Part shown: positions 37,860-47,274 of the stretch, piece by piece
Position numbering within the stretch: the stretch's first letter is position 1
How the letters are laid out: each line of letters begins with the position of its first letter
Source of the DNA: Longimicrobiales bacterium
GTDB taxonomy: Bacteria > Gemmatimonadota > Gemmatimonadetes > Longimicrobiales > Gaopeijiaceae
Reading direction: 5' to 3'
Assembly: GCA_965248195.1 (NCBI GenBank)
Contig: CBDFIQ010000002.1
Coordinates: 2,848,001 to 2,912,000, forward strand
Length of the DNA: 64,000 bases
The notes under the pieces: generated by a model
The model's database searches: none
Told to the model about the DNA's origin: nothing
Seen by the model: the letters and a program-made list of their open reading frames with translations, nothing else
Position numbers and translations under genes: made by a program

Positions 37860-39362
37860 TCAGCCGTCCACCACGCGAAGAGCGCCGGCCATTTCGAGCA
37901 GGGACTCGACCATCCCTTCGTCACCATAGACGTCGGGCACGCCGGAGACGGGCAGCCCTACGGAACGCCCCGCATCGGCCGTCGTCGGTCCGACACCGAA
38001 GATCTGCACACCGTCGAGGTCCACCCCGGACGAGGCCAGTGACTTCGCCGCCGAAGGGCTGTACAGAAGCACTGCATCCACCCCCCTTTTAAACGCGTCC
38101 AACGCGGCGTCATTCGGCGGCTGGAGCAGCGTGTCATACACATGGAGGGTCTGGACTTCCAAACCCACCCGAGTCAACCCGTGGGAAACCTCCTCGACCG
38201 CGAGCGTCCCGCACGGGAAGAGTACCCGCTCGCCGCTCTTCGCCTCGACCCCGATCGCCTCCACGAGAGCTCTAGCTCGATACTCTCCCGGGATCAGGTC
38301 GGCACGGATCCCCGCACTTTTTAGGCCGGCCGCCGTCTTGGGACCGACCGCGGCGATCCGAGCCGCTCCGAAGAAGCGGGCGTCGAGTCCCTGACGCTCA
38401 AGCTGGCGGACGAGTCCCTCGACCCCGTGCATCGACGTGAACACCATCCAATCGTGGTCGGAGCGCGGCTCCGAGAGCTCCGCCTCGAGATATTCAATAC
38501 GGATCAGCGGTGAGTCGATCACCTCCGCTCCGAGCCCTCGAAGCTTCGAAATGACTTGCCTGCTCGCGAAGGAGGGCCGGGTCACGACCACTCGGCGGCC
38601 TGCCAGAGGCCCGAAGCCCACAGCCGGCTTATTGCCGTCGAGGCGGGCCAACCCGGCGCCCGGACCCACGATCAGCACCATCGGCGCTCGCAGACCCTCG
38701 TCGCGGACGATGCCCGCAATGGTGGCAAGGGTCCCCCGGACCTGACGCTCCCCAGGGAGCGTGCCCTCTTGCACGACCGCAGCGGGGGTCGCAACGCCCC
38801 GACCCGCGGCCATCAGGCCATCCGTCACCTCCTCCAACCGAGCGCCGCCCATGAGCACGACCGCGGTGTCCATTTTCGCCATCGCGGCGTACGGGAGATC
38901 GCGGGCCGGAAGGCCCTTTCCGACGCTCGGCGTCACTATACTCACCGTACTCGCGTGTCCGCGCAGCGTGAGCGGGATGCCGGCCCCAGTAGGTACCCCG
39001 GTCGCGCTGGTCACGCCTGGAACCACCTCACAGGGGATACCAGCCAGATAGCAGGCCTCGATCTCCTCCCACCCCCGGCCATAGATAAAGGGATCGCCGC
39101 CCTTCAGGCGGACCACCTCCTTACCGGCCCTGGCCCGCTCGATCAGGACCTCGTGGATCCGGTCCTGAGCCACCGTGTGCTGACCGGGCGCTTTGAAGAC
39201 ATCGATCAGCTCGGCGCCGGGCCTCGTGAGGGTCAAGAGCTCGGCACCGGCGAGCCGATCAAAAACGACCACATCGGCCCGCCCGAGAAGCTCCTGGCCG
39301 CGAACCGTGATGAGCCCCGCATCTCCGGGCCCCGCACCGACCAGCCACACCCGACCAGTCAA
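37860..39362 (-). CDS. cobA: Uroporphyrinogen-III C-methyltransferase / uroporphyrinogen-III synthase fusion (CobA-HemD)
   Basis: LVGAGPGD, RLKGGDPFIYGRG, VPGVTS; C-terminal VVVTRP, VFTS, AVGPKTA, YSPSA; TTG start overlaps the upstream stop. Confidence 0.88.
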   Translation of the reverse strand: MTGRVWLVGAGPGDAGLITVRGQELLGRADVVVFDRLAGAELLTLTRPGAELIDVFKAPGQHTVAQDRIHEVLIERARAGKEVVRLKGGDPFIYGRGWEEIEACYLAGIPCEVVPGVTSATGVPTGAGIPLTLRGHASTVSIVTPSVGKGLPARDLPYAAMAKMDTAVVLMGGARLEEVTDGLMAAGRGVATPAAVVQEGTLPGERQVRGTLATIAGIVRDEGLRAPMVLIVGPGAGLARLDGNKPAVGFGPLAGRRVVVTRPSFASRQVISKLRGLGAEVIDSPLIRIEYLEAELSEPRSDHDWMVFTSMHGVEGLVRQLERQGLDARFFGAARIAAVGPKTAAGLKSAGIRADLIPGEYRARALVEAIGVEAKSGERVLFPCGTLAVEEVSHGLTRVGLEVQTLHVYDTLLQPPNDAALDAFKRGVDAVLLYSPSAAKSLASSGVDLDGVQIFGVGPTTADAGRSVGLPVSGVPDVYGDEGMVESLLEMAGALRVVDG

Positions 39363-40120
39363 GGTACCGAGAGCGTGCCCGAATCGATCGCTTCGAGGGT
39401 GAGCGAGGCCAACTCCGGCCACTCCAATATCGGCGGAAGGATCTTCAGGGTCTGCGGAAGGACCTTGAGGCTCGCCAGCGCGCGGCCGAGCCTTGAGAAC
39501 GTTCGGTGTGCGGTCAGGGCTTTGGCAAGATCGACCAGCACATGTCGTCCGCCTCCAAGGAGCAATGGAACGGCCACGACCGGGCGATCGCCGAGTGAGC
39601 CGGCAACGTCCGAAAGGTATGGAGATTCATCGAGAAAGGCGGTGAGAATCTCCGTACACGGAAAGGTGAGCGCCAGTTCGTCCCGAACCCACCGAGCCGC
39701 ATCCCCGCTCGAACGGACTCGCGTGGTACCATGCCCCACGAGCAGGACGACTGGATTCAGTCCCCGGCGGGTCATGTCCGTCACCGCCTCGCCCACCTTG
39801 GTCGCCAAAACGCGGGGAAATGCTGGAAGTGTGCCGATCGGAGGGGCAATCACGAAAGAACGCGACGGATCCCCCTTCGCCCATTCCTCCGGCAGGCGCC
39901 GTCGTGCGTAGTACCCACCGCTCGCCATGATCGGCACCACCACGGGGTCCTCTCCCCGAGAGCTCCGGGCTGCATCCTCAAAGCTCGGTGTGCCCTTCCA
40001 AAAGGCACACCCGAAGCGAACCCCGGGCCGGGCCTCGCGCAGGGCGTCCGCGAGTTCCAGGAGCGCCCGGTTGGCCGCCGAGCCATCGCCCGCGCCGTGC
40101 GCCGCGAGAATCACGCTCAT
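39359..40120 (-). CDS. CbiX/SirB sirohydrochlorin chelatase
   Basis: Duplicated AAHG and VGHGT motifs, VVPIM, AVPLLLGGGRH; siroheme gene context. Confidence 0.75.
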   Translation of the reverse strand: MSVILAAHGAGDGSAANRALLELADALREARPGVRFGCAFWKGTPSFEDAARSSRGEDPVVVPIMASGGYYARRRLPEEWAKGDPSRSFVIAPPIGTLPAFPRVLATKVGEAVTDMTRRGLNPVVLLVGHGTTRVRSSGDAARWVRDELALTFPCTEILTAFLDESPYLSDVAGSLGDRPVVAVPLLLGGGRHVLVDLAKALTAHRTFSRLGRALASLKVLPQTLKILPPILEWPELASLTLEAIDSGTLSVP

Positions 40121-40126
40121 GGTGTG

Positions 40127-40447
40127 GAGGCCCGTTGAAGGAGTACAGTGGGCCGCGTTGCGGATGCCACGGTCCTAGCTCCTAGGCGGAGCGACGACAC
40201 CATAGCCGTAGCTATGGCTAGGAGCTCCAACAACGGGGGCACCGCACGAAGCGTGGTCGGGGCCGTGCCACCGCAACCCTTCAACGTGTAAGGTCATGTC
40301 ATTCATGTCCGTGGGCACAGGGCGGTTGTGCGATTGATCCTGCGTCTCTCCTCCTCGCCGTAGCGTTGCTACGCCTCGTCGTCGTTCCTTGTCTGAACGC
40401 GCACAAGCGCCCTGTGCGCGACCCGCTGTACTCCTTCAACGGGCCTC
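40127..40447. mobile_element. 321-bp MITE-like element
   Basis: Perfect 22-bp TIR GAGGCCCGTTGAAGGAGTACAG at 40127-40148 and 40426-40447; internal hairpins; no convincing ORF; no clear TSD. Confidence 0.65.
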
Positions 40448-40457
40448 TACGCTACGA

Positions 40458-41093
40458 CTACCCGGCCGCCGAGCGAGCTCCGCTCACGAGCTCTTCGAGA
40501 GTCCATTCCCCCTCGCCGACCACCCTCATATGGAGCGTCAGCGGCCCCCGCTCGTGACCGACTCTTTCAAACTCGATCGGAACCCGGCCATAGAGGTCTG
40601 CCAAAACGTTTTCGAGTTCAGGGGTGACCTCTTCGAAGGCGGCCTCCGTCGCCGGTACGGCAAGACGATCCGTAAAACGAAAGACCATCTCATGCGTCGC
40701 AAACCGCACGGGGTTGTCCCCGGCGGTATCCTGCTCGAGTGCGGCAGCGGCCTCGAGCACGCTCACGATCGCCTCCCGTAAACGCTCGGCCAGAGTCCCC
40801 GACCCCTCCCTCTTCAATTCGTACTCGAGCCCGATACGGCCACCCGCTTCGTCCGTGCGGAGGTGCCACTCATGAGCGATCAGAAGCACTCCGGGCCCCT
40901 CCGGGACATGCGTGTAATCGTGGACGTCGACGAGCGTCCCCGGGAGACGGTCCTCCTGAATCCAACGGTGAAACACCTCGATCACCCGAGCCCGGTCGAA
41001 AGCCTCCTGGTCCTCGACGAAGACCTTCACCCCCAACCTTTGGGGCTCTGAAAGGACCCGAGCGCCCACCTCTGGCGCCGCCTGAGCGCTCAT
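40458..41093 (-). CDS. Hypothetical protein coupled to sulfite reductase
   Basis: ATGA overlap with the sir stop; VFHRWIQ..LVDVHDYTHVPEGPGVLLIAHE. Confidence 0.7.
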   Translation of the reverse strand: MSAQAAPEVGARVLSEPQRLGVKVFVEDQEAFDRARVIEVFHRWIQEDRLPGTLVDVHDYTHVPEGPGVLLIAHEWHLRTDEAGGRIGLEYELKREGSGTLAERLREAIVSVLEAAAALEQDTAGDNPVRFATHEMVFRFTDRLAVPATEAAFEEVTPELENVLADLYGRVPIEFERVGHERGPLTLHMRVVGEGEWTLEELVSGARSAAG

Positions 41094-43375
41094 ACCGATA
41101 CCGTCTCGGCGGTCCGAACGTGGTACGAGTGGGCGGCCTCGATAAAGAGTTGGGCCTCTTCAATTCGCTGGCGAGCCCGCTCAGGCGTCGCGTCGAACCC
41201 ATTGCTGCCCTCGCCGTGCACGCGGAACAAATAGTTTCCGAACTTTCCTCCCGCGTAGGGATCGTGGAACAGGCCTGGGTCATAGAGATGGGTCTTGAAG
41301 GCGGCAACCACGTCGTCGGGATCTTCGCCGAGCCCCACCTCTTTCTCGCGCACCAGAGTTCTCGCCGCGATCAGCATCGCACGGTAGGCGATATCGGCTG
41401 CGCCCGTGGAATCCCCTTGATCCAGCCGATCCTGAGCGTCGAAGACCTCGCGCTCGCTGGCCTGAAGGCCGAACTCGACCGGCGAGACGATCTGGCCGGC
41501 ACACTCACCGATGCCCATGTCGCCCAGTGTGAACTCTCGCGGATCCCCCCAATTCGAGTAGAAGCTGCGGTCCTCCTCGTAGGTGGGCACTTCGACCAGA
41601 TCCTCTAGAAGGGTCCTGAGGCTGGGCTTACCCACACGGGTGACGAAGGCCTTGAAGCTCTCATCCCCCTCGCGCTCATCAACGTAATACTGGGTGATCC
41701 TGTCCGTGGCGGCCGGGATGTTCCGCCCCGGCACGGCGACAATGGCCAGACCATACGCTCCGGCGTTCTCGGCCCATTGGCCGCCCAGCACGATCTGGAA
41801 GTGCGGCACGTTGTATCCGTTGCGCTTTCGGCTCACGCCCCAGAAACCGATGTCCGCCATATGATGCTGCCCGCAACTGTTGAAGCACCCGCTGATCTTG
41901 ATGCGCAACCCCCGCACCACTTCATCCAACTCCCCGTTGCGCTCCTCCAAGTGCTCCATGAGCGTACGCGCCAGACCACGCGAGGATGCGATGCCGAGCT
42001 TGCACGTGTCCGTCCCGGGGCAAGCCGTGATGTCCGTGAGCGTCTCCGCCCGCGCCTCTGCGAGACCGAGCTCGTCCAGGGCGTCGTGTAGAGCGGCGAG
42101 GTCGCTCTCCCGCACCCAGCGAAAAGCCATGTTTTGCTCGACGGTCATTCGGACCGCGTCGCCGGTAAAACGCCTCGCCACGTCCGCGAGGCCCCGCATC
42201 TGATCGGCCGTGATATCACCGAGAGGCAGGTAGACCATGACCACCTTGTAACCCGGCTGCCTCTGCGGGGCCACGTTGGAAGCCAGCCACGCCGCCAACT
42301 GTGGACTCGGCGTGAGCTTGTTCGGCTCCTCGATTTGCCAGAGCGGCCCATCATGACCCTCGTGGACACCTGGAAGGAAGGCGGTCCACCGGGGATCTTC
42401 GGACAGCCCCGCGCGGTCCTCCAGGACGAGGCGCCGGAACTCCTCGATGCCGAGCTTCGCGACGAGGAACTTCAAGCGGGCGCGGGACCGAACATCTTTT
42501 TCCCCCAGACGAGCGAACACTCGAGAGATCGACTGACAGATCGGAAGCAGCTCCTCTTCGGGCAGAAACTCGTCGAACAGCTCCGCCTGGTGAGGAACGG
42601 CCCCCAGGCCTCCGCCGACATAGAACTCGAATCCACGCCGCTCTACCCCAGCCACCTCCCGAACTCGGGCGATTCCACCGAAGTCGTGCATCTTGACGAG
42701 TCCGCAGGGACGGTCGCCACATCCGGAAAAAGCGGGCTTCACCTTTCTTCCGAACTCCTGAGTATCCGGGTGTCCGAGAAGGAAATCGCTGACGGCGGTG
42801 GCGTAGGGGGTGACATCGAACGTCTGTGTCGTGCAGACTCCCGAGAGGTGGCAAGCGGTAACGTTTCTTACGACGTTGCCGCACGCCTCAAGGGTCGTGA
42901 TCCCCACAGCGCCCAGCCGCCGCATCAGATCCGGGGTTTCTTCGAGGTGCACGAAGTGCAACTGGATGTCTTGCCGCGTCGTTACGTGTAGGATCGCGTC
43001 CGCATACTCCTCGGAGACCTCCGCCAGCGCGTCCATCTGATCGGCACTGACCGAACCGAACGGATTCTTGATACGCACCATGCCCGGCGCATCCCACTGC
43101 GTACCCGGGCCCTTGGTGAGCTCGGCGTTCGGGAAGACCAGTTCCCTCGAGTTAAACCCATCGTGGCGCTGGCCGTTGTCGTACCGCTGGCCGTAAACGC
43201 CCCGGCGTAGGCGCATCTCCGCGAAGACCTCATCAGTCAGTTTTCCCTCGCGCTTCTGCTCTATCTGTCCCTCGAAGGCATCGATCTCACGCGAAAGCTT
43301 GTCGCCGACAAGCGATCCGAGCCTTCCCTTCCACTGCCGTGGCTCCGAGGTCTCAAGCTTACCGTTCGTAGTCAT
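41090..43375 (-). CDS. sir: Siroheme/4Fe-4S nitrite/sulfite reductase, probably assimilatory sulfite reductase, with C-terminal extension
   Basis: TTRQDIQLH, ACGNVVRN, CPGTDTC and SGCFNSCG siroheme/FeS ligands; Cys-rich leaders upstream favour sulfite as substrate. Confidence 0.85.
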   Translation of the reverse strand: MTTNGKLETSEPRQWKGRLGSLVGDKLSREIDAFEGQIEQKREGKLTDEVFAEMRLRRGVYGQRYDNGQRHDGFNSRELVFPNAELTKGPGTQWDAPGMVRIKNPFGSVSADQMDALAEVSEEYADAILHVTTRQDIQLHFVHLEETPDLMRRLGAVGITTLEACGNVVRNVTACHLSGVCTTQTFDVTPYATAVSDFLLGHPDTQEFGRKVKPAFSGCGDRPCGLVKMHDFGGIARVREVAGVERRGFEFYVGGGLGAVPHQAELFDEFLPEEELLPICQSISRVFARLGEKDVRSRARLKFLVAKLGIEEFRRLVLEDRAGLSEDPRWTAFLPGVHEGHDGPLWQIEEPNKLTPSPQLAAWLASNVAPQRQPGYKVVMVYLPLGDITADQMRGLADVARRFTGDAVRMTVEQNMAFRWVRESDLAALHDALDELGLAEARAETLTDITACPGTDTCKLGIASSRGLARTLMEHLEERNGELDEVVRGLRIKISGCFNSCGQHHMADIGFWGVSRKRNGYNVPHFQIVLGGQWAENAGAYGLAIVAVPGRNIPAATDRITQYYVDEREGDESFKAFVTRVGKPSLRTLLEDLVEVPTYEEDRSFYSNWGDPREFTLGDMGIGECAGQIVSPVEFGLQASEREVFDAQDRLDQGDSTGAADIAYRAMLIAARTLVREKEVGLGEDPDDVVAAFKTHLYDPGLFHDPYAGGKFGNYLFRVHGEGSNGFDATPERARQRIEEAQLFIEAAHSYHVRTAETVSV

Positions 43376-43470
43376 CGGGTTCCCTTTTCCACTCCCATTC
43401 TATTCAAGCATCCAAGTAGCTGGCGCTCCGCTATCGGTTTCAGCATGCTGTTTTCCATAGATTGTGACCC

Positions 43471-43502
43471 AAAAAAAGCCGCGACCCTCGAGGGGCCGCG
43501 GC
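43471..43502 (-). terminator. Intrinsic attenuator terminator downstream of the poly-Cys leader
   Basis: GCCGCGGCCC-CUCGA-GGGUCGCGGC followed by U7. Confidence 0.85.
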
Positions 43503-43526
43503 GTCCGCCTGAGTCTTCGCTTCTCG

Positions 43527-43610
43527 TCAACGACTCGTCGGAACGCGCCCCTCTCTAGGCGTGACCAGGCAACAACAACAGCAACAACACATGGCCGTCA
43601 GTGGAGTCAT
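43527..43610 (-). CDS. Poly-cysteine leader peptide MTPLTAMCCCCCCCLVTPREGRVPTSR
   Basis: Seven consecutive TGT/TGC codons (43569-43589), followed by antiterminator/terminator, upstream of sir. Confidence 0.85.
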   Translation of the reverse strand: MTPLTAMCCCCCCCLVTPREGRVPTSR

Positions 43611-43702
43611 TTCCCAAGCCTCGAGATTTTCAGGGAACCGCACGTTTCGTATACCTCGTCCTAAGTTTGGGAATTACATACCTGAGTGCCCAAACCGCCG
43701 TG

Positions 43703-43834
43703 TCACTTCTTGTCCGGCGGTGACCTGAGGATAGCCTTCGCGACGTTCTCCGGGGTGTCCGGTATCTTCCGTTGCTGCGTATTGATGTCGTAGTCGTGCT
43801 TCGGCGGCCTGCCGGGCTTCTTCTTGTCTGTCAT
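43703..43834 (-). CDS. 43-aa basic protein in the IS end (MTDKKKPGRPPKHDYDINTQQRKIPDTPENVAKAILRSPPDKK)
   Basis: Below the ORF-track cutoff; AAGGG upstream; AT-hook-like KPGRPPK. Confidence 0.5.
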   Translation of the reverse strand: MTDKKKPGRPPKHDYDINTQQRKIPDTPENVAKAILRSPPDKK

Positions 43835-43846
43835 GTCGTGGCCCTT

Positions 43847-44806
43847 CTATACGGCGTGAATGGTGGCGAATGGTGGTTTGTCCTTCAGCTTCCTCGTCAT
43901 AGACGCCAACGACGGAAGATGCGGCGTGCCCAGAATCTCCAGCCAACACCGCCGGTCTCCGTTCCTTGCACGAATCGGGCCTGCATAAAGCGCGAGTGGT
44001 CCGTTCAAATCCGCTACGATCATGTTGACTTCATCAGGCGTCCAGCCTGGCGAAGTCAGATCGTCTAGTGGCAACACGGTTTGTGTACGAATGTATTCCG
44101 CGAGCAAGTCCTGCACGATCCATATAGTGCGACCGCCCCAGCTATTCGCGGCCTCCGACTTGGCGACAAGTTGCGATGCCATACGCGCCCACACTTGCCG
44201 CGTATTGACGCCGGGAGAGCGAACGGCCTCATTGGCTGGCGTATGCGCGAATAGTACAGCCCTCTTGAACGCCGCCTGTATATCGGTGCCCATCTGCCTA
44301 TTCCCACCGGACGTAGAGCACGTCATGACTTCCACGATGATAGGTGCCGAATCGTCCTCCAAGCCTCGCAATACATAATCAAGACGGTAATTGAACGTCC
44401 CGCCACTTCCTTTCTCTCTTAACGAGATTTCCGACCACACAGACACTGGTTCGCCCGCTTGAAAACCCGCGAGGCGAAACACCCGCTTGGCTAGTTCGTG
44501 ATGTTTGGCCGAAATTCCCTGCGGTCCGAACGCGAATAGGCGGTGAGGGCAGATGGCCCAGACCTTGCCCCGTGCGAAGCGAACCGAGCAAATGCCGCAG
44601 GGCAGCCAGCCGCCCGTCTCCGTGCCCACGGAAGACGAAAATAGATGCCCAAGCGACTCATCCGATGACCGTACTCGCGCCATATCTCGATTTCCGCCAC
44701 CATCACAAACAGACTCGGTGAACGGACATCGGGCCTTCCGGCAAGCATCCCCGTCCATGCCGGACTCTTCGAGCGGCTGTCCATACAACTCTTCCACTAC
44801 AGGCAT
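43847..44806 (-). CDS. NotI-like type II restriction endonuclease
   Basis: CPF..C, GICSV and ICPHR Cys cluster resembling the NotI Fe-Cys4 site; LDYV and IVEVMT nuclease-type residues; overlaps the MTase stop. Confidence 0.7.
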   Translation of the reverse strand: MPVVEELYGQPLEESGMDGDACRKARCPFTESVCDGGGNRDMARVRSSDESLGHLFSSSVGTETGGWLPCGICSVRFARGKVWAICPHRLFAFGPQGISAKHHELAKRVFRLAGFQAGEPVSVWSEISLREKGSGGTFNYRLDYVLRGLEDDSAPIIVEVMTCSTSGGNRQMGTDIQAAFKRAVLFAHTPANEAVRSPGVNTRQVWARMASQLVAKSEAANSWGGRTIWIVQDLLAEYIRTQTVLPLDDLTSPGWTPDEVNMIVADLNGPLALYAGPIRARNGDRRCWLEILGTPHLPSLASMTRKLKDKPPFATIHAV

Positions 44807-45831
44807 AGTGTCTCCGCGACGGCCTTCGCCATTGGTGGCGGGACCGCGTTGGCTACTTGGCGATGCTGGTCAAGGTCACGCACGGAACCCGACCTACCAC
44901 GAATGGGGCCAGTAAAGACGTACGTATCAGGAAAGCCCTGTAGGCGCGCCGCCTCTCGGGGCGTGACGTACCTATCATCGGTCGGATGGTAGGGCGCTTC
45001 CCCGCAGCGCAGCGTAGGCGCGAACGACGAACGGTCGAGGCGGCGAAACTTCGTCGTGTCCTTACGTGTGAGCTTCTTGATAATGTCCGGTGGCGCATCA
45101 GGACACTTCGATAACCATAGCCCTTCCGGCACGAAGGATATGCGCTCCCTGTCTCTCGCTGGCGTTATGTCAATGTGGTTCGGCAGTGCCGGGTTTCCAT
45201 CTCGCAGCACGGGGTCTGGCATCTTGCTCAAGGCGTCGCCTACGGTCCGCCGAACCCCGTTTCCCAACGGGAAGTCGAACTGCACATCTTCACCGGGAAG
45301 GAACACAAGAAAAACGCGCTCACGGTTCTGGGGCAGACCATAGTGCAATGCGTTCAGAGTACGAACATGCATCTTGTAGCCAAGCTCTTGAAACTCCGAC
45401 GCGAGCATATGGACGGCCCGCTGTCCATCCGGCATCATCGCTCGCAAGAAATACGGAACCTGCTCTATCATGACGGCCCTGGGGCGGAAGACATCCGTAA
45501 ATCGCACCATGTCGAAAATCAGCATCCCTCGCGGGTCACTAACTCCGTTGCGCTTCCCGATCTGGCTGAACGGCTGGCATGGGGGACCGCCATGGAGAAG
45601 CCCTAGATCGCCTTTACTCATTCCGAGAAGGTCACGCATTCTGTCAGCATCAACCAACCGGACATCGACGTTCCAAACCGTCTTCTTGCGAGCGTTACGC
45701 CTGAGTGTGGTGGCGCAATGCGGATCAAAATCGATGGAGCAAACCGTTTTGAACCCAGCCTGATCCACACCAATGTCCATGCCGCCCGCCCCCGCGAATA
45801 AGCTCACTGCGCTTCCGCGATTCCGCATCAC
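44797..45831 (-). CDS. DNA cytosine-5 methyltransferase
   Basis: FAGAGG, GPPCQPFS, EQV (ENV variant), QNRERVF, REAARLQGFP, ANAVPP. Confidence 0.92.
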   Translation of the reverse strand: MMRNRGSAVSLFAGAGGMDIGVDQAGFKTVCSIDFDPHCATTLRRNARKKTVWNVDVRLVDADRMRDLLGMSKGDLGLLHGGPPCQPFSQIGKRNGVSDPRGMLIFDMVRFTDVFRPRAVMIEQVPYFLRAMMPDGQRAVHMLASEFQELGYKMHVRTLNALHYGLPQNRERVFLVFLPGEDVQFDFPLGNGVRRTVGDALSKMPDPVLRDGNPALPNHIDITPARDRERISFVPEGLWLSKCPDAPPDIIKKLTRKDTTKFRRLDRSSFAPTLRCGEAPYHPTDDRYVTPREAARLQGFPDTYVFTGPIRGRSGSVRDLDQHRQVANAVPPPMAKAVAETLCL

Positions 45832-46799
45832 GCGACCAGTTCCCGGTAGCGGAGCCGTCCGCCGACCAGCCCACGCGCCACCGCGCCCATCTGGTCCAGC
45901 GTGTCTAGCGGTCGGTCGTTGAAGCGTCCGGCGAACTCCGCGACATAACGGTCCAGATGCTTCGGGCTCATGTGGTGATAGGTGCCGTAGTAGCCGCGCT
46001 TGAGGAGCGCCCAGAACGATTCCACGCCGTTCGTGTGGGCTTGGCCGTTCACGTACTCCCTGACGCTGTGGCGTACCGTAGCGTGCTCGTAGTCGCGGGA
46101 GAGCCCACCGTAGCCGCCATGGTCGTCCGTGTAGACGGTGGACCCGGCCTCGGCGTGGTCGGCAACGAACCCCGTCAGCGTCTCACCGTCTACACGATCC
46201 ACCACGCGAGCGGCTACCTGCTTCGTCTCGCGATTCTTCGCGCCAGCCACGGCGGTCTTGCCAACCGGCCCACGGCCAGCCCGTAGCTTCTTGCTCCCGT
46301 GCTTGTTCCGCTCCTTGCCGCCTATGTACGTCTCATCGACCTCGACGGGACCGGAGAACGGGGCCGGGGCGGTGCGCCACGTCTGGCGGATCCGGTGCGC
46401 CAGATGCCAAGCGGTCTTCTGCGTCACACCCAGATCACGGTGCAGCTTCATGCTGCTGGCTCCCTTAATGCCGGTCGTGAGGATGTAGATCGCGACGGCC
46501 CACACCTGATAGCCGAGCTTCGTGTCTTCCATCGCCGTGCCGACCCGTACGCTAAACCGCTTGCGGCACGACCGGCAACGGTAGGGCATCGTCGGGTGCT
46601 TCGCGCCCATTTGCACGTTATCCGACGCGCAATGCGGGCAGACCGGAGAGCCGCCCCAGCGCTGTTCTGCGAACCACCCTTCGGCAGCTTCGTCGCTCGG
46701 GAATATCCGCATCAACTCCACCCATGACAGCCCTTCGCGCTCCGCCCGTCCGGGGCCGCCGTTGTACTTGCTGTTGCCGCTCATCTCTATGCTCCGCAA
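45828..46799 (-). CDS. IS1595-family (ISXO2-like DDE) transposase (start may be the ATG at 46784)
   Basis: Zn ribbon CPHC..CRSC, VEVDETYIGG, VYTDD, HTNGVESFW. Confidence 0.93.
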   Translation of the reverse strand: MRSIEMSGNSKYNGGPGRAEREGLSWVELMRIFPSDEAAEGWFAEQRWGGSPVCPHCASDNVQMGAKHPTMPYRCRSCRKRFSVRVGTAMEDTKLGYQVWAVAIYILTTGIKGASSMKLHRDLGVTQKTAWHLAHRIRQTWRTAPAPFSGPVEVDETYIGGKERNKHGSKKLRAGRGPVGKTAVAGAKNRETKQVAARVVDRVDGETLTGFVADHAEAGSTVYTDDHGGYGGLSRDYEHATVRHSVREYVNGQAHTNGVESFWALLKRGYYGTYHHMSPKHLDRYVAEFAGRFNDRPLDTLDQMGAVARGLVGGRLRYRELVA

Positions 46800-46921
46800 T
46801 GTGTTATCCTATATTGGTAATATAGTACCCATCACGGAGGGTCGCAAGGGGTTTGGGTACTCAGGTATGTAATCCCCCTAAGTTTCGGGTCTTTCCATTC
46901 CCGGTCTCACCCGGTTCGAAC

Positions 46922-46951
46922 AAAAAAGGCCCTCGGGAAAACCCGGCGGCC
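46922..46951 (-). terminator. Second intrinsic terminator after the upstream Cys leader
   Basis: GGCC-GC-CGGG-UUUU-CCCG-AG-GGCC followed by U6. Confidence 0.7.
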
Positions 46952-46975
46952 TCTTGAACTGGAATCCAAACCCAC

Positions 46976-47003
46976 AAAAAAGCCACCGAATGTCTCCGGT
47001 GGC
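46976..47003 (-). terminator. Intrinsic attenuator terminator after the upstream Cys leader
   Basis: GCCACCGGA-GACA-UUCGGUGGC followed by U6. Confidence 0.8.
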
Positions 47004-47031
47004 GTTTCAGGGAACCTCGTCGCGTGTATGC

Positions 47032-47127
47032 CTATACGACGTCTCCCCGATACCCCACCGGGCTCGGACAAGAACATCGGCAACAACAACTCTCGAGCAT
47101 CATGACCCGCATCCTTTTACAACACAT
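47032..47127 (-). CDS. Cys-rich leader peptide (MCCKRMRV)MMLESCCCRCSCPSPVGYRGDVV; start at 47127, 47112 or 47103
   Basis: Five Cys in seven codons (47068-47088), followed by antiterminator/terminator. Confidence 0.75.
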   Translation of the reverse strand: MCCKRMRVMMLESCCCRCSCPSPVGYRGDVV

Positions 47128-47157
47128 CCGCTTTCTCACACATCCTTCTTAGAAACA

Positions 47158-47185
47158 ACGCTAACCGCCCGAAGTCCCCTGTCAA
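47158..47185 (-). promoter_or_regulatory. Sigma70-type promoter for the Cys leader
   Basis: TTGACA-N16-TAGCGT. Confidence 0.55.
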
Positions 47186-47233: not shown

Positions 47234-47274
47234 TTCCAGACCCTCGATCCGGCATTCCAGACCCTCGATGCGGC
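47234..47274. repeat. Near-perfect 21-bp tandem duplication
   Basis: ttccagaccctcgatccggca followed by ttccagaccctcgatgcggc. Confidence 0.75.

Follow-up and report, generated by a model that had tools for sequence, protein, structure and literature searches.

A conserved tandem of probable cysteine attenuators was found upstream of sir, a sulfite/nitrite reductase gene, in a Longimicrobiales genome, where it is broken by an insertion. The window, that is, the whole stretch of DNA analysed, comprises 64,000 nucleotides (nt) of contig CBDFIQ010000002.1, from position 2,848,001 to 2,912,000. On its minus strand the order was promoter, leader 1, two terminators, an insertion sequence (IS) of the IS1595 family, leader 2 with seven cysteine codons (C7), terminator 3 and sir. 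This locus lay between a divergent MatE gene and the sir operon. We regard the conserved tandem and its disruption as real. Folding models suggested that the leaders and three terminators in series are likely ribosome-dependent transcription attenuators, and that the IS probably uncouples them through its own predicted promoter. Our confidence in this reading is moderate. The closest relatives of sir in the genome collection belonged to Gemmatimonadota, order Longimicrobiales.

The insertion-free tandem in relatives

The IS and one target repeat were removed in silico, and about 93 nt then separated terminator 2 from the ATG of leader 2. This agreed with the roughly 95 nt given by the first-pass annotation, whose promoter, leaders, terminators and IS were all found in place on the minus strand. 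That annotation had also described two Cys attenuators in series as the state before insertion and had proposed a search for the empty-site allele. The insertion-free tandem was indeed found in relatives and points to this earlier state. Promoter, leader 1, two terminators, leader 2 and terminator 3 were contiguous in four of the eight same-genus genomes that bear leader 1 (G001, G006, G007 and G011), and G144, from another genus, carried two copies of the IS-free tandem. Both G011 and G144 have one copy of the target 8-mer at their empty sites. In addition, contigs of runs X2 and X3 from sample S1, which may be the sample this genome came from, skipped exactly 3,217 bases, corresponding to the IS and one repeat. 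The skip may come from a related strain, because the short sides of these contigs were only 21-30 letters. The two copies in G144 (contig C1, near 1719300 and 1745100) comprised promoter, both leaders and cysH, were apparently identical and were ~85% like this genus. Their flanks differed, no sir lay directly behind them, and from their sequences they look horizontally moved.

Two findings had been named that would speak against a serial arrangement, namely a promoter of sir's own and an origin of leader 1 with another, deleted gene. No other promoter-like site of at least 8/12 was conserved between the leader-1 promoter and leader 2 among six tandem alleles, G006 alone having one, and the sequences gave sir no conserved promoter of its own in this interval. 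In G007, the U-run of terminator 2 abutted the Shine-Dalgarno (SD) sequence of leader 2. Leader 1 stood directly before cysH in two other genera: G142 and G149 carried leader 1 and both terminators before cysH, without leader 2. This arrangement implied that leader 1 is an ancient leader of cysH and was not left behind by some other gene. In the IS-free allele, and only there, the sequence contains two complete predicted elements that would share a transcript, without a conserved promoter to separate them; in this genome the IS stands between the two.

Leader 2 was lost by four different deletions, in G004, G005, G009 and G010, some of which left remnants. A sir tree of nine genomes and an outgroup, which omitted G144 and G002, required at least three changes, and no bootstrap tree allowed one. 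Leader 1 was retained in all nine genomes. The four breakpoints implied that the benefit of stacking seems weak or conditional. In another genus, G286 (C53, 840-1300; L205) had an element resembling leader 1 (nhmmer E 8e-4), with a second Cys open reading frame (ORF) and a terminator behind it. The second ORF resembled a frameshifted leader 2 (E 0.21), and the sister genome G287 had the first element only. From G286, the origin of the tandem may predate this genus.

Module 1: leader 1 and two terminators

Leader 1 begins 55 nt downstream of the -10 box, behind an SD, and its Cys codons are at positions 6, 7, 8, 10 and 12. The -10 box was slightly divergent in two distant loci of the 12 that carry leader 1. 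Eight of the 11 same-genus genomes retain leader 1, as do three genomes from other genera; the three same-genus genomes without a match are only 73-85% complete. Weak matches in eight other genomes of the family were without the poly-Cys ORF and were dropped. In the antiterminator core, the third codon positions were invariant in 12/12.

Folding was consistent with a switch. When the RNA under a ribosome at codon 8, in the Cys run, was masked, the probability of terminator 1 was at most 0.49, and at the stop codon it was at least 0.83, in all 12 sequences. In a nascent-RNA model, antiterminator 1 formed at 0.95 or more in 12/12 stalled sequences. In these models, leader 1 has an antiterminator that excludes terminator 1 and is exposed by the stall. 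The relay helix, formed by the 3' arm of terminator 1 and the 5' arm of terminator 2, was paired in each of the 96 cells; one double change occurred, and three pairs changed on one side. The stem of terminator 2 itself was only 79% paired across the aligned sequences. The relay reached at least 0.7 in 10/12 sequences of the nascent-RNA model, and it appears to link both terminators that follow leader 1.

Module 2: leader 2 and terminator 3

Besides the ATG, leader 2 has another plausible start in the same frame, a GTG behind its own SD, which had escaped the first-pass annotation. The GTG, its SD and the frame were retained in 6/6 alleles. Where present, leader 2 showed 89% column identity, and the SD, frame, Cys run, antiterminator and terminator were kept in 6/6. 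The pairing of leader-2 RNA with its own terminator arm gave p 0.04. When the nascent RNA was cut before the 3' arm, the long antiterminator captured 0.52-0.71 of the terminator-3 arm in 6/6. A descent of leader 2 from cysG-sir leaders was considered and rejected, as the peptides are look-alikes only and nhmmer gave no match between leader 2 and those leaders (E up to 5).

A 12-mer had been reported both in the leader-1 antiterminator and just upstream of leader 2. It is present at both places, copy B lying in codons 2-5 of leader 2 when read from the GTG. When the modules were resampled 2,000 times, 0.3% of the trials gave them a shared word of at least 12; the 12-mer had been chosen post hoc. 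However, the exact match was confined to this genome, and the longest shared word was only 6-8 nt in 5/5 relatives with both modules. The repeat is not conserved, and we treated it as a coincidence and rejected it as functional.

Cysteine leaders compared with chance

Both leaders are, by sequence, short Cys-codon ORFs with an SD and a start codon, followed by a predicted intrinsic terminator before the first gene. They precede genes of the pathway, namely sir, CbiX and tetrapyrrole methylase here and cysH in relatives. There were 63 cysH loci in the order; two with less than 300 nt upstream were dropped and 61 were scanned. A Cys-rich short ORF with a terminator lay within 700 nt upstream of cysH in 36 of the 61 loci, and again in 36/61 with a wider scan. 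In the same scan, nine other amino acids gave 0-1/61 and the antisense strand gave 0/61. Among 77 sir loci there were 19 sense vs 0 antisense matches. Seven of the matches were outside this genus, and these included loci labelled as Acidobacteriota classes and Entotheonella. UGU, which the GCA tRNA reads by wobble, made up 91/109 Cys codons in leaders 1 and 2, whereas it made up 1,075/3,325 in long ORFs. The distance from stop codon to U-run was 44-61 nt in 48/51 leaders, and leader RNA paired with its own terminator arm in 26/54 at p<0.05. A ranking of cognate against non-cognate arms was set aside, since arm length confounded it.

Further lineages, some of them non-Gemmatimonadota, also had Cys leader ORFs with terminators upstream of sir, cysH or cysG (L088, L099, L113, L128, L145 and L147). 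Locus L113 likewise has two terminators. At locus L108, the Cys run is at the stop codon and no terminator was found there. A metagenome pattern scan was too loose, with one real leader 1 among the 121 matches listed and no new type. In this genome, a genome-wide scan for short Cys ORFs found seven, two of which are leaders 1 and 2; four others were inspected and had no leader context. The Rfam scan placed no family on the leaders, its sole match being a sub-threshold CRISPR-repeat on the IS end.

The inserted element

The element has a DDE transposase with a zinc ribbon, 28-nt terminal inverted repeats that are 93% complementary, and a target duplication, and it is a member of the IS1595 family, in which the usual target duplication is 8 bp. 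It is the one full copy in the genome. A second IS1595 (G000:C2:2996100-2997690) is only 68% alike, has no cargo, and lies directly before a tRNA cluster that includes one of two tRNA-Cys genes. The cargo consists of a methylase and its putative cognate nuclease. The methylase assignment was clear; the nuclease was assigned by a weak PADLOC match and had no Pfam match and no PDB match. The pair recurs in G156 (C1, L340), where the same methylase (67% identical) and the nuclease lie behind a lexA-like gene, with no transposase seen in that locus. Near-identical cargo pieces were found in sequencing runs of three other studies.

The promoter-like site in the IS left end had an equal offset and spacer in four of five IS1595 elements compared, with scores of 7-9 of 12. 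The interior of the IS contained one weak hairpin-U site only on this strand. From this layout, sir is probably left under leader 2 alone after the insertion. The insertion itself is an ordinary, probably recent event, and it was probably tolerated in a lineage whose operon was already eroding through the loss of cysH.

Loss of cysH and the sulfur pathway

In relatives, cysH lies between leader 2 and sir. It has been lost in this genome, a point not noticed in the initial description. The breakpoints in this genome (G000) and in G006 are different. In G006 (L002, 1430-1510), where cysH was deleted separately, its first codons are joined to sir in frame. The end of the tiny ORF after terminator 3 overlaps the start of cysH in relatives and that of sir in this genome, and this overlap with the next start suggests that translational coupling was retained through the cysH deletion. 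No PAPS-reductase family match was found in this genome, which is 91.8% complete, while the control gave 14/14. A Sat-type ATP sulfurylase is present; cysD was not found in this genome, nor in any of five relatives searched. Given the cysH loss, sir would depend on sulfite from another source.

Other features of the locus

The coordinates are collected in Table 1. Upstream of the promoter, a 20-nt direct repeat (95%, spacing 21) was seen at window positions 47234-47274; relatives appear to have a single copy.

Table 1. Features of the locus in window coordinates
Feature	Position	Strand	Remarks
Sigma70-like promoter, TTGACA-16 nt-TAGCGT	47158..47185	-	both hexamers and spacing in 12/12 leader-1 loci
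Leader ORF 1, 23 codons, CCCRCSC	47032..47103	-	SD-like AAGGA at 47116-47112
Antiterminator core in leader 1, complementary to 5' arm of terminator 1	47055..47062	-	7 core pairs invariant, 12/12
12-mer copy A, in predicted antiterminator stem of leader 1	47005..47016	-	
Terminator 1 hairpin, then U-run	46982..47003	-	predicted
Terminator 2 hairpin; 5' arm can pair with terminator-1 3' arm (relay)	46928..46951	-	not caught by simple hairpin scan
8-bp target duplication, left copy	46878..46885	-	exact direct repeat
IS1595-family element with passenger genes, 3,209 bp	43669..46877	-	inverted repeats 46877-46850 and 43696-43669
Promoter-like site in IS left end, TTGCGA-17-TATATT	46819..46847	-	30-31 nt inside left end
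IS1595 DDE transposase, 318 aa	45828..46784	-	PF12762 E 1e-43, PF12760 E 3e-8
C5 cytosine DNA methyltransferase	44797..45831	-	PF00145 E 5e-57; PADLOC MTase_II E 2e-70
Probable type II restriction endonuclease, 319 aa	43847..44806	-	PADLOC REase_II E 3e-7 only
43-codon ORF near IS right end	43703..43834	-	similar short ORF (by eye) ends the genome's second IS1595
8-bp target duplication, right copy	43661..43668	-	4 nt before first leader-2 SD
Leader ORF 2, 38 codons from GTG 43643 or 27 from ATG 43610	43527..43643	-	seven Cys codons 43589-43569
12-mer copy B, codons 2-5 of leader 2	43628..43639	-	
Antiterminator segment in leader 2, complementary to 43507-43490	43539..43553	-	
Terminator 3 hairpin, then U7	43478..43502	-	predicted
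Scar of cysH deletion, read as 24-codon ORF, stop overlapping sir start	43372..43446	-	
Sulfite/nitrite reductase hemoprotein (sir), 761 aa	41090..43375	-	PF01077, PF03460
Rest of operon: 211-aa unknown protein, CbiX-family chelatase, tetrapyrrole methylase-HemD fusion	37860..41093	-	

Proposed mechanism and alternative explanations

The folding models yielded switches of the trp style. When charged tRNA-Cys is plentiful, the ribosome would reach the leader stop and cover the antiterminator segment, and the terminator would form. When charged tRNA-Cys is scarce, the ribosome would stall within the Cys codons, leaving leader RNA exposed to pair with the 5' arm of the terminator. In module 1, the freed 3' arm of terminator 1 would capture the 5' arm of terminator 2, so that one stall would open both. 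Leader 2 would repeat the cysteine test at terminator 3. After the insertion, transcripts from the IS left end would cross the transposase, methylase and nuclease genes and meet only leader 2 before sir. A wider proposal is that this double checkpoint of two leaders and three terminators, two of them relay-linked, makes sulfur assimilation switch-like, and that the allelic series in the genus (the tandem itself, leader 1 alone after any of four deletions, and leader 2 alone after the IS insertion) retunes it. We regard this as possible and offer it tentatively. That stacking would sharpen the cysteine response is a reasonable analogy with tandem riboswitches for the same ligand (PMC9481103).

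Several results weighed against attenuation as modelled here. In ribosome-masked folding, stalls at Cys 10-12 of leader 1 mostly favoured termination. The relay did not form in G009 and G142 in the nascent-RNA model, and the zero at the leader stop in that model is a consequence of masking. The covariation of antiterminator and relay was not clearly above the shuffle control (27-64 of 500), and most of their core pairs never vary. Equilibrium folding switched only 14/51 leaders, as strong terminators mostly win. Leader 2 of this genome was no equilibrium switch, with terminator 3 at 0.74-1.00 when stalled. Because terminator 3 wins at equilibrium, leader 2 would require kinetic control. The IS promoter match taken alone was at chance level (1 found, 1.3 expected). 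In addition, the genomes are kin, and the locus counts are not independent and overstate independence.

Leader 2 could instead be a leftover of operon rearrangement that still attenuates, with the stacking unselected and decaying and the IS one more neutral hit. The four distinct deletions and the repeated changes required by the sir tree are in line with such decay, as is the frameshifted look of the second leader in G286. The failure to find cysD in this genome and in the five relatives searched points the same way, and elsewhere in Gemmatimonadota cysH and cysG-sir each have a promoter of their own and a single leader. However, leader 2 is well kept wherever it is present, with all elements in 6/6, and homology of leader 2 to the cysG-sir leaders was not detected by nhmmer. 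We find this explanation doubtful. The first-pass annotation had offered another version, in which the transposase and restriction-modification genes are induced by cysteine starvation: the IS would lack an effective promoter, its cargo would be expressed by read-through from leader 1, and sir would need both leaders across 3.2 kb. The genes are co-directional, and no terminator-like site was found from terminator 2 to the transposase start. The conserved promoter-like site at the IS left end (4/5) nevertheless makes the induction doubtful. Moreover, the cargo is not tied to leader 1, because the pair stands behind a lexA-like gene in G156 and near-identical pieces occur in the three other studies. 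A restriction system requires steady methylase, which also counts against expression by read-through only. We therefore judge this version unlikely. Read-through from leader 1 under starvation may reach the cargo, but only as an addition to the predicted IS promoter, and from the sequence a dependence of cargo expression on cysteine is unlikely.

The short ORFs might also matter as Cys-rich peptides that bind metal or respond to redox state, or through translation as in mycobacteria, the hairpins being ordinary terminators. The leader peptides are conserved within each family, and the mycobacterial polyCys leaders work on translation (10.1101/834739). However, the peptides differ between families, and yet the stop-to-U-run distance is held in nearly all leaders. 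The pairing of leader RNA with its own terminator arm and the invariant third positions of the antiterminator core likewise speak against it. This explanation is very improbable. An assembly artefact could in principle produce the split arrangement, and no contig among eight sequencing runs spans the entire stretch. Against it stand the perfect 8-bp duplication and the terminal repeats, and a contig of run X6 that extends over the left junction, 123 of its letters lying outside. Contigs of X1 and X2 extend 30 letters beyond the right junction without differences, one short of the bridging rule; these runs may derive from the source sample. We consider an artefact barely credible. Serial attenuation interrupted by the IS is the reading that we retain.

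Comparison with known systems and significance

Classical transcription attenuation is represented by the trp and his leader peptides (10.1101/834739). This locus shares with them a short leader ORF rich in the pathway amino acid and an antiterminator that competes with an intrinsic terminator. Unlike them, it would sense cysteine, it has two leaders in series, and leader 1 would govern two terminators through the predicted relay. The nearest cysteine case is uORFC-8-2 before cysS in Rhodobacterales, a predicted Cys upstream ORF with an intrinsic terminator (PMC8632094). As described there, it differs in having two Cys codons, one leader, a tRNA synthetase target and a different phylum; both cases are predicted only. 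In Actinobacteria, polyCys leaders precede cysteine-pathway genes, and cysteine sensing was shown in Mycobacterium smegmatis (10.1101/834739; PMC1262725). They are alike in their runs of Cys codons, but are described as leaderless and translational, and conserved terminator hairpins are not reported for them (PMC1262725). Leader 1 was not assigned to this class, as it has a 55-nt 5' region with an SD and is followed by terminators.

Tandem arrangements are known as well. The Salmonella mgtCBR leader carries tandem attenuators for two different signals, ATP and proline (PMC3641672), and as described it shares two translated leader ORFs acting serially in one 5' leader. In contrast, both leaders here would sense charged tRNA-Cys, with three intrinsic terminators in addition. 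Tandem riboswitches for the same ligand, for example tandem thiamine pyrophosphate riboswitches, are reported to steepen the response (PMC9481103). Such pseudo-cooperative riboswitches share two independent decisions on the same signal in series. However, the sensor here would be the ribosome and not an aptamer, and Rfam gave no matching family. IS1595 elements with passenger genes (tIS) have been described (PMC5704250), as have IS-borne terminators (PMC2965389). The present element resembles the tIS in its DDE transposase, terminal inverted repeats, target duplication and cargo. Its cargo, a probable type II restriction-modification pair, and its target, a regulatory leader, are unlike those described.

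The mechanism of attenuation is thus known, whereas the same-amino-acid tandem was not found in our literature search. That search, which covered few subscription journals, returned no same-amino-acid tandem attenuator and no Gemmatimonadota case. In the literature found, terminator-type cysteine attenuation was represented by one prediction only, and tandem leader-peptide attenuators were for two different signals only. The natural single-leader and split alleles are ready-made constructs for asking whether stacked ribosome-based sensors sharpen a response like stacked riboswitches. The tandem also indicates a way in which Gemmatimonadota may control sulfur assimilation.

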